NCBI GenBank assembly: GCA_030614005.1
Contig: JAUWKS010000033.1
Location: 1 to 32,000, forward strand
Reading direction: 5' to 3'
DNA length: 32,000 nucleotides
From: Candidatus Heimdallarchaeota archaeon
Lineage (GTDB): Archaea; Asgardarchaeota; Heimdallarchaeia; JABLTI01
Position 1 is the first letter of the stretch; the number at the start of each line of letters is the position of its first letter. Made by a program: the position numbers and the translations under genes. This document shows positions 3,186-10,787 of the stretch, one piece after another. The notes under the pieces were generated by a model that worked only from the letters and a program-made list of their open reading frames with translations, made no database searches and had not been told where the DNA came from.

Positions 3186-4034
3186 ATGTCTGATAATATT
3201 TTCGATTTAGGTGAAATAGATATCTCATGGTGTCCAGGATGCGGGGATTATGCCATCCTACGAACATTAAAAGAAGCACTTGTGGAATTGAACATCAAAC
3301 CAAAAGATCTTGTTATGGTTTCAGGTATTGGTCAAGCAGCAAAATTACCTCAATATTTGAAATGTAATTATTTCAATGGTCTTCATGGAAGATCTCTACC
3401 TCCAGCTTGGTCAATTAAAGTAACAAACCCTGAACTAACGGTTATAACTGAAAGCGGGGATGGTTGCTCATATGGTGAAGGCGGGAACCACTTAATTCAT
3501 ACGATAAGAAGAAATCCCAATATTACTAACATCGTTCATAACAATATGATCTATGGGTTAACAAAAGGACAAGCATCTCCAACATCACAATTTGGTTTGA
3601 AAACTGGTGTGCAAGTCGATGGAGTCATTCTTACTCCTTTTAATCCATTATCTTTTGCAATAGGACTTGAAGCATCATTTGTTGCAAGAACTTATGCTGG
3701 AGATCAAAAGCATATGAAAGAAATGATGATAAAAGCAATCGAACATGAAGGGTATGCTTTGCTAGATATCCTCCAACCATGTGTTTCATTCAATAAAGTA
3801 AATACATACAAATGGTTCAAGGAACGCATCTACTATCTCGAAGAGTCTCATAATCCGAAAGATAAACTTGAAGCAGTAAAAAGAGCTTCAGAAACAGATA
3901 GATTTCCATTGGGAGTATTCTATATTAAAGATAAACCAACCTTTGAACAAAATCATGATTTGTATCAAAAATCTGATGAAGCACTCTATAAAAGAAAACG
4001 AGATCTCAAGAAATTCGCAAAGAAGTTCTTCTAG
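3186..4034 (+). CDS. korB: 2-oxoacid:ferredoxin oxidoreductase beta subunit
   Basis: WCPGCG, SGIGQ, HGR, TPP-binding GDG...[20 protein letters not shown]; starts 3 nt after the alpha subunit stop. Confidence 0.95.
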
Positions 4035-4066
4035 ATCTCCAAAACCTTCTTTTTTTTATTAGAAAA

Positions 4067-4543
4067 TTATCCACCTGGACTACCGTGGAATGGAGCATAT
4101 TTGTACATCCAATCTTCCAACATATCTTCTGTGAGAGTTTCCTTTTCAATCAGTGCTTTTAGCAATGTTTTGAGGAAAGTATGATGTCGAACTTCATCTT
4201 TGTGAATTTCACTGATGACAGTTTTCACTGAATCTGAAGGAGGATCTTTCAATATTTCTTGATAGGTTTCAATGGCTTTTGCTTCCAATTCAATATGTTT
4301 CTCAATGGTTGCTTTTATCTCATCAAAACTCTCTTCTTCGATCAATGGAGTTGGACCTATGAGCATACCTTTCAATGCACCTAAAAGTAAAGCATGTTTC
4401 TTAGAGTCCATCGTAATACCTCTAATCAACTCCCTAACAAGGATATTCTTAATGTTATCAACACTGGCATTGGAAATTTCGATAATCTCTTTTTCCAAAG
4501 CTATTTGTTCATCAAGAAACTCAATTAATTTTTCTTCATCCAT
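4067..4543 (-). CDS. Small ferritin-like (four-helix, di-iron) protein
   Basis: Two repeated helix pairs with carboxylate/His ligands (LEKE...DSKKH; LEAKAIETY...DEVRH); C-terminal PFHGSPGG. Confidence 0.75.
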   Translation of the reverse strand: MDEEKLIEFLDEQIALEKEIIEISNASVDNIKNILVRELIRGITMDSKKHALLLGALKGMLIGPTPLIEEESFDEIKATIEKHIELEAKAIETYQEILKDPPSDSVKTVISEIHKDEVRHHTFLKTLLKALIEKETLTEDMLEDWMYKYAPFHGSPGG

Positions 4544-5026: not shown

Positions 5027-5329
5027 ATGCATGAAGATTTAGACTTTGTAATTGAATCAGGAACTAAAAAACCAGCAGACATAACAATTTACGCATTATC
5101 CACTTGCGGTTTTTGTAAAAGTGCTTTGAACTTTCTTCGCGAGAATGATATTGCTTTCAAATATATCTATGTAGATAAACAATCATCTCAAGTTAAAGTT
5201 CAGATTAAGAAAGATTTACGAGATAATTATGAAGAGAGATTGGGCTTCCCCTACTGTGTTGTCAATGGTGGAGAAAAAGTTATGGTAGGATTCAAAACAG
5301 AAAAATGGGAAAAAGCCTTTCTAGTGTAA
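5027..5329 (+). CDS. Glutaredoxin/NrdH-like redoxin
   Basis: YALSTCGFC (CxxC), cis-Pro motif GFP, VGF..W at the C-terminus; GAGGT upstream. Confidence 0.9.
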   Translation: MHEDLDFVIESGTKKPADITIYALSTCGFCKSALNFLRENDIAFKYIYVDKQSSQVKVQIKKDLRDNYEERLGFPYCVVNGGEKVMVGFKTEKWEKAFLV

Positions 5330-5350
5330 TATAATAAATCGTACAATAGT

Positions 5351-5710
5351 GTGATGAAGATGCCCGTGCCTAAAAAACTGAAGACCAAAGAAGAAGTCCG
5401 AAAATTTGTTGAAATGGTTGCAAATAAACAAGGTTGGTATTTGCACCCCGATGAGAAATTTTTAGTTATGTTAATTGAAGGCTTACAAAGTAATTACAAT
5501 GAACATGGCTATTTTGGTTGTCCTTGTAGGTTATTAGAAGGTGACAGAGAACACGATAAAGACCTTCTTTGCCCTTGTGACTATTGCAATCCTGATCAAT
5601 TAGAATATGGTCATTGCTATTGTGGACTCTATTGTACTCACGAATTCCATGCTTCTGGTAAGACACCAGACGGAATACCAGAAAGACGACCAGAAGAGAA
5701 ATGGTTCTGA
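5351..5710 (+). CDS. Ferredoxin:thioredoxin reductase catalytic-subunit-like protein
   Basis: GCPCR, LCPCDY and HCYCGLY: three CxC motifs of the FTR [4Fe-4S]/disulfide site; directly downstream of the redoxin. Confidence 0.9.
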   Translation: MMKMPVPKKLKTKEEVRKFVEMVANKQGWYLHPDEKFLVMLIEGLQSNYNEHGYFGCPCRLLEGDREHDKDLLCPCDYCNPDQLEYGHCYCGLYCTHEFHASGKTPDGIPERRPEEKWF

Positions 5711-7395: not shown

Positions 7396-8337
7396 TTATT
7401 CTTGATTTACAATTAATCCTTTGGAGTCAATGGTAATTGTTGATAATGCTTTTCCCTTCGTTTGATTTAGTGCTGTTGTTATTTTATCTCGAGTATCTTC
7501 TGTAACCAATGCAAGCATATTATCACCTACCCCTGCTCCTGAGAGTTTAGCACCAAGTGCATCATTATCAATTGCAGCCGAAATCAATTCTTCAAGTATA
7601 GATGAACTAACATTTAACGCTCTTAGCAAATCTTGATTTTCGTTCATCAAATTACCCAAAGTTCTTTGATCATTCTCTAATATTGCTTCTTCTGCATTAA
7701 TTACAATTTCCCTTATTCTATCGAATATTTTCTTGGCTTCAATAGGATCTTTGTATTCATAATCACGAACTTGCTGAACAATAGGTCCACTTGGAGCTTT
7801 AAACCCAGTATTGCCCACAACAAATTTTACATTCTCATAAGGCAATGACTTCGGCTTCCTGCCCATTTGAAATTTTATAATACCGCCATAAAGTGAGGTA
7901 GCAATATCTAAACCACTACCGTACCCTTTGAAATCTTGGTTGAAATCAATGCAAATCTTCAGGAATTCAAGTCTGGATGGCATGATATCGAAGTAGGTAA
8001 AAAGTGCTCCATATAGTGCAACAATAAGCGCTGCCGAGCTTCCGAAACCAGATTGAATATCAGACTCAATAACGATATCAAGTGGTTTTTCTGAAAGACT
8101 GTATTTTCTAAAAAAAGTAGCAATAAGACTTGAAACCATATCCAATTTCATCGTTGGATATTCTTCTTGATAAACATTGAACTCTTTACTAGTGAGTAAA
8201 ATTTTATGCACTTTGCATTTTGAGAGAGTAACTGTTAAACGCTTGTTTACAGCAAATACAATTGCCGGTTTTCCTCGGCTACTAGCATGTTCTCCAAAAA
8301 GAATTAATTTTCCTGGTGCTGAGCTAATTATTTTCAT
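7396..8337 (-). CDS. GHMP kinase of the mevalonate pathway (MVK scaffold with phosphomevalonate-kinase-like motifs)
   Basis: PGKLILFGEH, SGFGSSAA ATP loop, GSGLDIATSLYGG, GAKLSGAGVGD; co-oriented directly after mvaD. Confidence 0.85.
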   Translation of the reverse strand: MKIISSAPGKLILFGEHASSRGKPAIVFAVNKRLTVTLSKCKVHKILLTSKEFNVYQEEYPTMKLDMVSSLIATFFRKYSLSEKPLDIVIESDIQSGFGSSAALIVALYGALFTYFDIMPSRLEFLKICIDFNQDFKGYGSGLDIATSLYGGIIKFQMGRKPKSLPYENVKFVVGNTGFKAPSGPIVQQVRDYEYKDPIEAKKIFDRIREIVINAEEAILENDQRTLGNLMNENQDLLRALNVSSSILEELISAAIDNDALGAKLSGAGVGDNMLALVTEDTRDKITTALNQTKGKALSTITIDSKGLIVNQE

Positions 8338-8367
8338 CTAATCATCCTTCGTTTGTTCGAGTATTAT

Positions 8368-9378
8368 TTAAAATAAATGTTCATTTACAACTTTAACCCC
8401 TGGTCCTGGTTTACTCGAGATTATTTTCTCTGGGAGAATTTTTTCCTCAAGCTGTTTTACTATTTCATGCTCAAATTTTGGTATTGTTAAAATGTGTAAA
8501 TTTGCTCCAGTATCTATTGTATAGTAAGCATCTATTTTTTCTTCGCGAAGATTTTCAACGAAATGCATCACTTTTACAGTGTCAGGTGTCCAGAAAATTT
8601 GCGGAGGATTTGAAGTGATTGCTACAGAATGCATTGAAAGGCAATCCATTTCAGCAACTGACCCTAATGAATTGAAATCTCTCTCTTTTATAGCCAATCT
8701 GATTTTAGCAAGATTTGTATCCAAAGTATCTAAACGAGATTTAAAGAAAGGACTTGTCTTTATTGATAATTTCATAGCATCTCGAGTGCTCATTTTTCTT
8801 TCAGGTGTTTTCAATACAACAACGATATCTCGTATATCAAACCAATTTTCATCTGCTAATTGGATAGCGTAGGATTCATTTTGTTCGTTATTGGCAATCC
8901 ATTCAACATAACCACCATAAAAGGATCTACAAGAGGACCCCGAACCTCTTCTAGAAATCATTGATAATTCTTTTTTGTCTAGCTTCAAACCAGCTGCATT
9001 TGTTGCAGCGGATGTTAGTGCTGCAAAACCAGAAGCAGAAGAAGCCAATCCGGCAGCAGTTGGAAAATTGTTTTCAGAATAAACCTTGGCTTTAACATTT
9101 GTTTGAGAGATTTCACGTATAATTGCAAGATGGTCTACAACTCTCTTCAAAGGTTTACCAGTTTGTTCAGTGCCATTCAAAATGAAATTATCTTTAGTTA
9201 ATTCTTCTGAAAATTCAACTGTTGTAGTAGTTGTAAGTGCTTCTGTTGTGAATGAAATACTGTTGTTCATTGGTATAATCAGTTCTTCATCTCGTTTTCC
9301 CCAGTATTTGATTAGTGCAGTATTGGAATGGGCTATGGCTGTGGTTTTCGTTGTGATCACGCTCTTTAGTATAATCAA
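8368..9378 (-). CDS. mvaD: (Di)phosphomevalonate decarboxylase; alternative GTG start at 9360
   Basis: AHSNTALIKYWGK, NNFPTAAGLASSASG, RRGSGSSCRS, YYTIDTGAN. Confidence 0.95.
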   Translation of the reverse strand: MIILKSVITTKTTAIAHSNTALIKYWGKRDEELIIPMNNSISFTTEALTTTTTVEFSEELTKDNFILNGTEQTGKPLKRVVDHLAIIREISQTNVKAKVYSENNFPTAAGLASSASGFAALTSAATNAAGLKLDKKELSMISRRGSGSSCRSFYGGYVEWIANNEQNESYAIQLADENWFDIRDIVVVLKTPERKMSTRDAMKLSIKTSPFFKSRLDTLDTNLAKIRLAIKERDFNSLGSVAEMDCLSMHSVAITSNPPQIFWTPDTVKVMHFVENLREEKIDAYYTIDTGANLHILTIPKFEHEIVKQLEEKILPEKIISSKPGPGVKVVNEHLF

Positions 9379-9503: not shown

Positions 9504-10787
9504 TTGGAAGAAAAAATTAGCTCAGATTATGTACCACATAATATCAAAAAAGATTTAAATTTTTTTAAATTAAGCATAGTTATTGGAATAATTGTCTTAA
9601 GCATTTATACAATACGTAAATTCATAAATATCCTATCGATATTTATAATAGAAGGATATAGAATTTTACCTAGTTTTATTTTTTACTTTATACAATCTGC
9701 TATAATAATAACAATGATTCTTATTACTTTAAGCAGTCGAAAAGTTGCGAATATTATACCTGAAAGATCACAAGAAAAAATGAAAAATTTCAGCTTTATT
9801 TATTTCTGTATGGTAATTTTACAACTGTTATATTTAATCTTTGAAATCTTATCGTTATCTCAACTTCTACTTGGTGTTATTGTGTTCTTCATATTCTTGA
9901 TATTTGACATTCTCTTTCTAATAGGCTATGGTGCTTCACTCTACATTTTAGGACAGATGTTTGAGTTAGAAAAGGAATTTTTCGAGAATAAAACGAGAAA
10001 GCTATACTCATTTTATGGTATAATTGCTGTTTATGGAATAATTATGATATTAATTGTTTTTAAATTAATCTTACCATCATATAGTATTAACTTAAGAGAC
10101 TTCATCATAGGTGTAATGGGCATTATTATGTTTGGAGAGATTTATACAATCATAAATAAAATTACATCAGAAATGTTTGATTCAAATAGAGTTGCAAAAT
10201 TTAATGCTGAAAATTTGGTGCAAAATGAACAAATTTCGAAATCTGATACCAGCCATCCTAATGATAAATTATCAAATAAAGATAAGAAAATTACCACCTT
10301 ACTTTGTTTGTTTTTTGGAGAATTAGGGGTGCATAGATTCTATGTTGAAAAACCCCTCTCAGGATTATTATATCTCTGCACAGGAGGAGTTTTTTATTTT
10401 GGTAAAGTATATGATTTCATAAGGATCCTTACAGGAAAATTCACTGATGGTGATGGTAAGTTAATAACAGACAGCTCAACAACAGCACAAGTTACTCAGC
10501 AACCTTCTATACAACATCAATTAGCTACCTCTGAACCAAATATTCAAAATATAAAGCAAGAAATGGATACAGAAATAGAAGCTGTAATAGAAGCTAAACT
10601 AGAGGATAAAATTAACCTTATGACTTCAGGTGAAGTAATTGATCTAAATGATATTGCTAAACAATATAGTTGTAGTACAGAACAAGTGAAGTCAATTTTA
10701 AGGAAACTTCTCTCCAAAAGAAGAATTTGTGGTTCCTTAAACCTCGTCAAAGATATTTTTACAACAAAAGAAATTCAAATAAAATGA
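9504..10787 (+). CDS. Multi-pass membrane protein with a TM2 domain and a C-terminal winged-helix (PCI-like) segment
   Basis: About 6 N-terminal TM helices; TM2 motif LLCLFFGELGVHRFYVEKPLSGLLYLCTGG...YDFIRILTGKFTDGDG; tail IDLNDIAKQYSCSTEQVKSILRKLLSKRRICGSL. Confidence 0.75.
   Translation: MEEKISSDYVPHNIKKDLNFFKLSIVIGIIVLSIYTIRKFINILSIFIIEGYRILPSFIFYFIQSAIIITMILITLSSRKVANIIPERSQEKMKNFSFIYFCMVILQLLYLIFEILSLSQLLLGVIVFFIFLIFDILFLIGYGASLYILGQMFELEKEFFENKTRKLYSFYGIIAVYGIIMILIVFKLILPSYSINLRDFIIGVMGIIMFGEIYTIINKITSEMFDSNRVAKFNAENLVQNEQISKSDTSHPNDKLSNKDKKITTLLCLFFGELGVHRFYVEKPLSGLLYLCTGGVFYFGKVYDFIRILTGKFTDGDGKLITDSSTTAQVTQQPSIQHQLATSEPNIQNIKQEMDTEIEAVIEAKLEDKINLMTSGEVIDLNDIAKQYSCSTEQVKSILRKLLSKRRICGSLNLVKDIFTTKEIQIK

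Follow-up and report, generated by a model that had tools for sequence, protein, structure and literature searches.

A predicted phosphomevalonate kinase and a diphosphomevalonate decarboxylase at the probable end of the mevalonate pathway of a Heimdall archaeon

The gene pair and its decarboxylase

The window analyzed here is a 32 000-nucleotide stretch of DNA from Candidatus Heimdallarchaeota archaeon (assembly GCA_030614005.1, contig JAUWKS010000033.1, positions 1–32 000 of the forward strand). The genome is metagenome-assembled, as are all those compared below, and comprises 3.62 Mb in 126 contigs at 90% completeness. Two adjacent genes on the minus strand, to which all coordinates within the pair refer, run in the same direction: first a decarboxylase gene (8368–9378; 336 residues from a TTG at 9378 or 330 from a GTG at 9360) of the diphosphomevalonate decarboxylase (DMD) type, and then a gene (7396–8337) for a 313-residue GHMP kinase with an acceptor site of the phosphomevalonate kinase (PMK) type on a mevalonate kinase (MVK) fold. 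A 30-nucleotide spacer (8338–8367) leads from the decarboxylase stop codon to the kinase ATG, 5′ of which lies a GGATGA box resembling a Shine–Dalgarno sequence, and the two genes probably share one transcript. We propose that they form the end of the mevalonate pathway of this archaeon. The kinase, from a compact MVK-like branch of PMKs, would add the second phosphate at C5 and the decarboxylase would yield isopentenyl diphosphate (IPP) directly, as would fit a lineage lacking isopentenyl phosphate kinase (IPK).

The decarboxylase scores 309.6 bits on the DMD model TIGR01240 (EC 4.1.1.33), above the cutoff of 171.35, and fails the models for phosphomevalonate decarboxylase (PMD; NF040704, EC 4.1.1.99; 213.8 bits, cutoff 475) and for mevalonate 3,5-bisphosphate decarboxylase (here MBD; NF040847; 69.1 bits, cutoff 560). 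The segment NTALIKYWGKRD (9289–9324) contains Asn, Lys and Tyr together with the Lys of the YWGK motif (Lys21 in Staphylococcus epidermidis), a mark of the diphosphate type. The GHMP ATP-binding loop AAGLASSASG (9028–9057) is intact. The segment ERKMSTRDAM (8773–8802) carries the equivalents of Arg193 and Met196, as in DMDs (Thr and His in PMDs), with Arg at the Lys188 position and Thr at the Ser192 position. The catalytic Asp (Asp283 in S. epidermidis, Asp281 in SsoDMD) lies in YYTIDTGAN (8500–8526) and is followed by Thr, where classical DMDs have Ala. The equivalents of the YWGK Lys, Arg193, Met196, Arg144 and the catalytic Asp are all kept, as are the carboxylate Arg and the ATP loop; the roles of these residues, including the catalytic Asp, have been described (PMC9254496). 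The three departures (Arg at Lys188, Thr at Ser192 and Thr after the catalytic Asp) are common to the decarboxylases of a sister clade, clade B, which is described below.

The two marker positions can be compared with the PMD of Anaerolinea thermophila, which reads YWGN and GH in the wild type (PDB entry 6n0x) and YWGK and GM in an engineered form (6n0z). The window enzyme, with YWGK, S-T-R and M, has Lys and Met at both positions and not the Asn and His of PMD. Its closest solved relatives are bacterial DMDs (Enterococcus faecalis, 5v2l, 254 bits), while eukaryotic DMDs reach 160–172 bits. Judged by its sequence, the enzyme is a DMD of the diphosphate type and is neither a PMD nor an MBD. These residues also bear on a route of the Thermoplasma type with two replacements, in which a DMD-like enzyme would decarboxylate mevalonate 3,5-bisphosphate to isopentenyl phosphate and the GHMP kinase would replace IPK. 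Such a route could draw on the genes for a mevalonate 3-kinase-like (M3K-like) and a mevalonate 3-phosphate 5-kinase-like (M3P5K-like) protein that are present in this genome, in which MBD and IPK are absent, and isopentenyl phosphate and mevalonate 5-phosphate are both C5 phosphate monoesters. We nevertheless consider it very improbable, given the retained binders of the β-phosphate (the YWGK Lys, Arg193 and Met196), the intact ATP loop and a score on the MBD model of 69 against 560.

Among clusters of MVK, PMK and DMD genes in bacteria of the candidate phyla radiation (CPR), many (L052, L054, L059, L063, L070, L077, L099, L102 and L114) encode, after the clade C kinase described below, decarboxylases with YWGK and PMD-like Thr and His at the Arg193 and Met196 positions; in L052, L063, L070 and L102 the catalytic Asp is replaced by Asn.

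Kinase motifs, relatives and phylogeny

The kinase was modelled with AF2 (pLDDT 96); the best structural fit is to archaeal MVKs (TM scores of 0.86–0.91), and orthologues are labelled 'mevalonate kinase' in public sources. The sequence motifs were aligned with anchors from the same archaeal class, namely canonical MVKs adjoining IPK and four Asgard PMKs over the TIGR01220 cutoff, and the alignment shows a mosaic in which motif I is MVK-like (GEH) and motif II, the acceptor segment and motif III are PMK-like. Motif I, APGKLILFGEHASSRG (8272–8319), includes FGEHASSRG and has Lys10, Glu16 and His17 as in MVK, with VVY replaced by SSR (Arg21). Motif II, the ATP loop SGFGSSAAL (8026–8052), contains the GFGSSAA of conventional PMKs, where MVKs have GLGSSA. 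In the acceptor-site segment, GYGSGLDIATSLYGG (7882–7926), which contains the catalytic Asp144, the PMK-type GSGxD(I/V)A replaces the HGxPSGxDN of MVK, and in motif III, KLSGAGVGDN (7519–7548), the PMK-type SGAGxGD replaces the TGAGGGG of MVKs and of the outgroup. All 29 aligned reference MVKs hold the MVK states HGxPSGxDN and TGAGGGG, against KGYGSGLDIA and SGAGVGD in the kinase. Canonical Asgard and CPR MVKs read GEHxVVYG, HGxPSGxDN and TGAGGGG, and PMKs of the conventional type that exceed the TIGR01220 cutoff read GFGSSAA, GSGFDVA and SGAGGGD. In motif III the galactokinase-like outgroup agrees with the MVKs, which marks the PMK state as derived. The kinase motifs are kept in 42 orthologues (47–100% identity) and in the genomes of the same genus and are therefore not due to chance. 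On these motifs, the best reading of the kinase is that of an enzyme of the PMK type built on a mevalonate kinase scaffold.

The 605 homologues of the kinase sort into three groups. Clade A, to which the window kinase belongs, comprises Heimdall/Asgard sequences with GEHASSR that are 47–100% identical to it. Clade B proteins (about 309 residues, 38–47% identical) have GEH(A/V)(S/G)R(H/Y) and were not found in 300 sampled Asgard genomes. Clade C proteins (about 320 residues, 33–38% identical), from CPR bacteria and Aenigmarchaeota, have GEHAVVYG. An Arg at position +3 or +4 after GEH is present in 70 of 70 clade A and B sequences and in none of 199 from clade C.

In about 150 clade C loci with flanking sequence, the kinase is nearly always the middle or last gene of a cluster of MVK, clade C kinase and DMD. 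Five clade C genomes with a DMD-type decarboxylase contain no PMK over the cutoff, the best match being the clade C protein itself (72–83 bits), and give no IPK match. With its position between MVK and DMD, and with no other PMK and no IPK in these five genomes, clade C must by operon and pathway logic be PMK, despite the 'mevalonate kinase' names in the sources. Published gene lists for CPR bacteria that include MVK, PMVK and DPMD agree with this assignment (Hoshino & Gaucher, 2018; PMC6107057). One Aenigmatarchaeota locus (L049:11111–12337, plus strand) encodes, beside an MVK and a clade C kinase, a third kinase, which is PMK-like but very divergent and sits on a long branch.

In a maximum-likelihood tree of 74 sequences, clades A, B and C and the four conventional PMKs are separated from all MVKs and the outgroup with UFBoot and SH-aLRT supports of 100 and 99, and clades A and B are joined at 100 and 98. 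Several results count against a PMK-type kinase. The window kinase scores 197.5 bits on the MVK equivalog TIGR00549 (EC 2.7.1.36), over the cutoff of 163.05, and lies below the cutoffs of all PMK models (TIGR01220, 66.4 against 165.7; NF040957, 51.8 against 500; TIGR01219, 21.5 against 377); its nearest solved sequences and folds are MVKs. Approximately unbiased (AU) tests reject neither a tree in which the conventional PMKs join the outgroup (p = 0.099) nor one in which clades A and B join the MVKs (p = 0.157), and the anchors of the tree are all profile-labelled or operon-labelled sequences. The phylogeny supports the PMK side without deciding the matter; operon logic and the shared derived motifs bear the argument.

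The same results are the ground on which the database annotation could be correct. The kinase would then be a divergent MVK, the sole one of its lineage, with the PMK step performed by another enzyme or missing from the assemblies. The kinase is the only match in the genome over the TIGR00549 cutoff, its top matches in the PDB by sequence and by fold are MVKs, and the AU tests leave room for a placement on the MVK side. On the other hand, PMK states stand in place of HGxPSGxDN and TGAGGGG, relatives that have these PMK states too are encoded in one operon with a true MVK, the maximum-likelihood tree places the kinase on the PMK side (100/99), and the 12 genomes of the family offer no other PMK candidate. 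We judge a divergent MVK to be improbable. An ordinary MVK, which was the first reading from the profile scores, was given up in the light of the aligned motifs and the operon neighbourhoods.

The proposal that the kinase is a PMK on an MVK scaffold was made in a first-pass annotation of the locus, and it is supported by the motifs, the maximum-likelihood tree and the clade C operon context. The motifs quoted there (FGEHASSRG, GYGSGLDIATSLYGG and SGAGVGD) are all present in the open reading frame, and the contrasts that it drew between MVK and PMK motifs hold for real Asgard and CPR MVKs and for PMKs passing TIGR01220. Its identification of the partner as DMD agrees with the TIGR01240 score (309.6 against 171.35) and the diphosphate-type residues. 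It also suggested a GHMP phylogeny; the maximum-likelihood tree gives a PMK-side placement at 100/99, tempered by the AU values of 0.157 and 0.099, at which the alternatives are not rejected.

Pathway gene content and the proposed route

The genome comparison covered 82 genomes of the class, 12 of them from the family of the window and 11 from its genus. The window genome encodes HMGS and HMGR of the upper pathway as well as IDI2, and its GHMP complement consists of the kinase and the DMD of the window pair, a pantoate kinase, a β-RFAP synthase, an M3K-like protein and two paralogues of the galactokinase type. By TIGR00549 profile scores, none of the 11 genus genomes has a canonical MVK, the orthologue of the window kinase being the sole match over the cutoff; this orthologue is found in nine of the 11, and the two without it are the least complete. 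Every other family of the class has one canonical MVK (215–294 bits on TIGR00549), mostly adjoining IPK. An IPK over the cutoff is absent from all 12 genomes of the family, compared with 63 of 70 with one elsewhere in the class. Neither AcnX nor UbiD was found in the window genome, which leaves no archaeal AcnX/UbiD route, and MBD was likewise not found there. A conventional PMK is absent from the 12 family genomes; the few genomes that have one belong to a single other family, where it lies after DMD and near a separate MVK. Animal-type PMK (PF04275) was not found either, a weak negative as the control matched nowhere.

Two candidates for the missing enzymes were rejected. Two MVK-like paralogues of 358–363 residues have a galactokinase motif of the NCGIMDQ type and occur across the class beside canonical MVK; these genes (G000:C123:29783–30874, plus strand, and G000:C71:112937–114013, minus strand) fall below both the GalK and the MVK cutoffs. 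The sole IPK-like match is an MfnE-like kinase adjoining MfnF. Elsewhere in the class, five genomes of families f4 and f5 (G032, G033, G038, G039 and G040) contain DMD-family genes scoring 245–265 bits on TIGR01240. Canonical MVK and IPK matches co-occur in four of the five (neither is found in G039), so these DMD-family genes are probably of the PMD type.

The M3K-like gene is carried by all 11 genomes of the genus and is missing from the other 71 of the class. It overlaps the M3P5K-like gene by four nucleotides, and the nearest solved relative of its product is the Thermoplasma M3K Ta1305. Genes of the same kinds recur beside clade B kinases: locus L134 (metagenome contig Ga0307419_10000306) has M3K, M3P5K, DMD and kinase genes in this order on a single strand, the junctions being short or overlapping; L136 has M3P5K, DMD and kinase, and L133 and L135 have DMD and kinase. 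Among the loci with flanks, neither M3K nor M3P5K occurs at any locus of clade C, and a canonical MVK occurs at none of clade A or B. In L134, a gene for a HAD-family hydrolase (3651–4322, plus strand) overlaps the kinase stop codon by four nucleotides, and two further HAD-like genes follow on the opposite strand; a phosphatase is thereby coupled to three kinases and a decarboxylase.

Because IPK is absent, IPP has to be reached directly in this genome. With no route via isopentenyl phosphate and with a decarboxylase of the diphosphate type, some enzyme must make the 5-diphosphate; of the candidates, the window kinase alone has an acceptor site of the PMK type. Given the absence of canonical MVK from the genus and the presence of the M3K-like and M3P5K-like pair, its substrate is most likely to be mevalonate 3,5-bisphosphate. 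Mevalonate would enter through the M3K-like and then the M3P5K-like enzyme, giving mevalonate 3-phosphate and mevalonate 3,5-bisphosphate; the kinase would convert the latter to 3-phosphomevalonate 5-diphosphate, and DMD would convert this to IPP. The predicted kinase product is the normal intermediate of the DMD reaction, and DMD may need to perform only the half-reaction of elimination and decarboxylation. We infer these substrates and the order of the steps, together with a role for Arg21, on a background of observations: which genes are present, their motifs, the kinase fold, the phyletic pattern and the contexts of the operons. An operon that closes a route from M3K through M3P5K and a PMK-type kinase to DMD and IPP is the best explanation overall, one that we would accept and doubt in equal measure.

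Motif I contributes to the mevalonate site in MVKs (PMC10910542). In the window kinase, Arg21 of the SSR sequence is a candidate ligand of the 3-phosphate. In the structure of the Leishmania MVK, the backbone of the motif I His reportedly contacts the C3 hydroxyl. An Arg four residues further on would, by inference from this geometry, be a reasonable ligand for a phosphate at C3. The first-pass annotation had suggested that the change from VVY to SSR could form a phosphate pocket. This is plausible, and SSR tracks the partnership with M3K and M3P5K, but it does not define PMKs, as it is absent from the CPR-type and conventional enzymes.

The proposed route also has points to answer. DMD has its ATP loop intact and a basic residue at the Lys188 position; such an enzyme does not depend on a substrate phosphorylated beforehand, which would make M3K redundant. 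Both the M3K-like and the M3P5K-like protein fall below their curated cutoffs (147.6 against 440 and 134.6 against 250). As clades A and B form one clade, the association of Arg with M3K amounts to a single evolutionary event and not to a statistical association.

The complete active site of DMD also speaks for a classical route, the lower pathway foreseen in the first-pass annotation. The kinase would act as PMK on mevalonate 5-phosphate and DMD would run the full ATP-dependent reaction, with its ATP site complete and all catalytic residues present. The 5-phosphate would come from a bifunctional MVK/PMK, that is, the kinase itself (Lys10, Glu16, His17 and Asp144 are kept), or from a 5-kinase that is not orthologous, for example the M3P5K-like P-loop kinase if it accepted free mevalonate. 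The MVK-type GEH motif I and the TIGR00549 score of the kinase also speak for a classical route, and the clade C relatives act on mevalonate 5-phosphate by operon logic. Clade C, however, also has GEH and yet needs a separate MVK in its operon, so GEH does not imply MVK activity, and the M3K-like gene would be left without a role although it is coupled to the M3P5K-like gene, confined to the genus and found in the clade B operon with DMD and kinase. We regard a classical route as unlikely, if still worth weighing. Of the lower pathway as first annotated, the PMK-type kinase and DMD are supported; the mevalonate 5-kinase that would supply mevalonate 5-phosphate was not found, and the genome has no separate canonical MVK, an outcome that the annotation itself had listed as speaking against its reading. 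Two further genes that it proposed to look for, IPK and phosphomevalonate dehydratase, did not appear either, the genome having no IPK, AcnX or UbiD.

If the route from M3K to a PMK-type kinase and DMD exists, it would represent a fifth combination of mevalonate steps, giving IPP without MVK, MBD or IPK in this Heimdall genus and in the uncultured lineage with the four-gene operon, with the Arg of motif I as a specificity switch; we advance this wider claim tentatively and on the doubtful side of even. Besides the four mevalonate routes known so far, there would be a further variant that can be tested, and pathway engineering would gain a natural set of enzymes. A large clade of CPR, DPANN and Asgard kinases annotated 'mevalonate kinase' would be PMK by operon and pathway logic, and reconstructions that trust this name would miscall the mevalonate variant of the organism. 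It would also temper the claim of 'the eukaryote-type' lower pathway in Heimdall archaea, as this lineage would have a CPR/DPANN-type kinase, no MVK and a decarboxylase that resembles bacterial enzymes more than eukaryotic ones. The first-pass annotation drew a link to the origin of the eukaryotic isoprenoid pathway, which is weak: the kinase scores 21.5 bits against 377 on the ERG8 model, and the decarboxylase is nearer to bacterial DMDs.

DMD and kinase genes adjoin in eight of the nine kinase-carrying genomes of the genus; in the ninth, G073, they lie about 3 kb apart (G073:C74:16951–21828, locus L026). The neighbours of the pair in the window are genes for glutaredoxin, the ferredoxin–thioredoxin reductase β-chain, a TM2-domain membrane protein and unannotated membrane proteins, none of them related to it. 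The glutaredoxin gene is directly followed by that for the catalytic β-chain of ferredoxin–thioredoxin reductase (5027–5710, plus strand). Upstream of the decarboxylase gene, a divergent gene (9504–10787, plus strand) encodes the multi-pass TM2-domain membrane protein of 427 residues.

Comparison with known systems

The window kinase is most similar to the 'PMVK' of CPR and DPANN lineages (clade C), which is encoded in MVK–PMVK–DPMD clusters of Patescibacteria and Aenigmarchaeota (PMC6107057). Both are compact (about 310–330 residues), have an MVK-like fold and a DMD neighbour, share the motifs GEH, GFGSS, GSGxD(I/V)A and SGAGxGD at 33–38% identity and fall on the same side of the tree. Clade C differs in having GEHAVVYG without Arg, GDC and a canonical MVK always in the operon, whereas the window clade has GEHASSRG, GDN and no MVK in the genome, with M3K and M3P5K instead. 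Conventional GHMP PMKs of the TIGR01220 type, such as that of Streptococcus pneumoniae and here the enzymes of Heimdall family f6 and of genome G302, share the acceptor-site motifs, the adjacency to DMD (DMD then PMK in L029 and L030) and the side of the tree. They are longer (350–380 residues) with two insertions and have GEW or GEY in motif I, and the window kinase reaches only 66.4 bits against 165.7 on their model.

Archaeal MVKs (M. mazei, PDB entry 6MDE; M. burtonii, 8TEB) share the fold (TM score 0.86–0.91, r.m.s.d. 2.2–2.6 Å, 30–31% identity), the length, the catalytic set of Lys, Glu-His, Ser and Asp and a TIGR00549 score over the cutoff. Their HGxPSGxDN, TGAGGGG and VVY are, however, all replaced in the window kinase, which does not adjoin IPK, unlike the MVKs of other Heimdall families. 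With the Thermoplasma-type pathway (M3K Ta1305, M3P5K Ta0762, MBD and IPK), the genus shares the M3K-like and M3P5K-like pair and the lack of MVK. It differs in having neither MBD nor IPK, and its pathway would end with a kinase followed by a decarboxylase (PMK-type enzyme and DMD) and not with a decarboxylase followed by a kinase.

Contigs with 'DMD/PMK' have already been listed for Heimdallarchaeia o__JABLTI01, the 'PMK' of which was placed closest to the MVK outgroup, and metagenome-assembled genomes with Thermoplasma-type genes were found also to carry PMK and DMD, described as a 'mixed combination' (Zhu et al., 2024; PMC11052028). That study proposes no substrate or order of steps, and it leaves undiscussed the missing MVK and IPK, the operon of four genes and the Arg of motif I. 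New here are the evidence for grouping the kinase with the CPR/DPANN PMKs despite its MVK annotation, the clean loss of both MVK and IPK from the genus, the four-gene operon of the sister clade, the Arg of motif I and the three co-varying substitutions in the decarboxylase.

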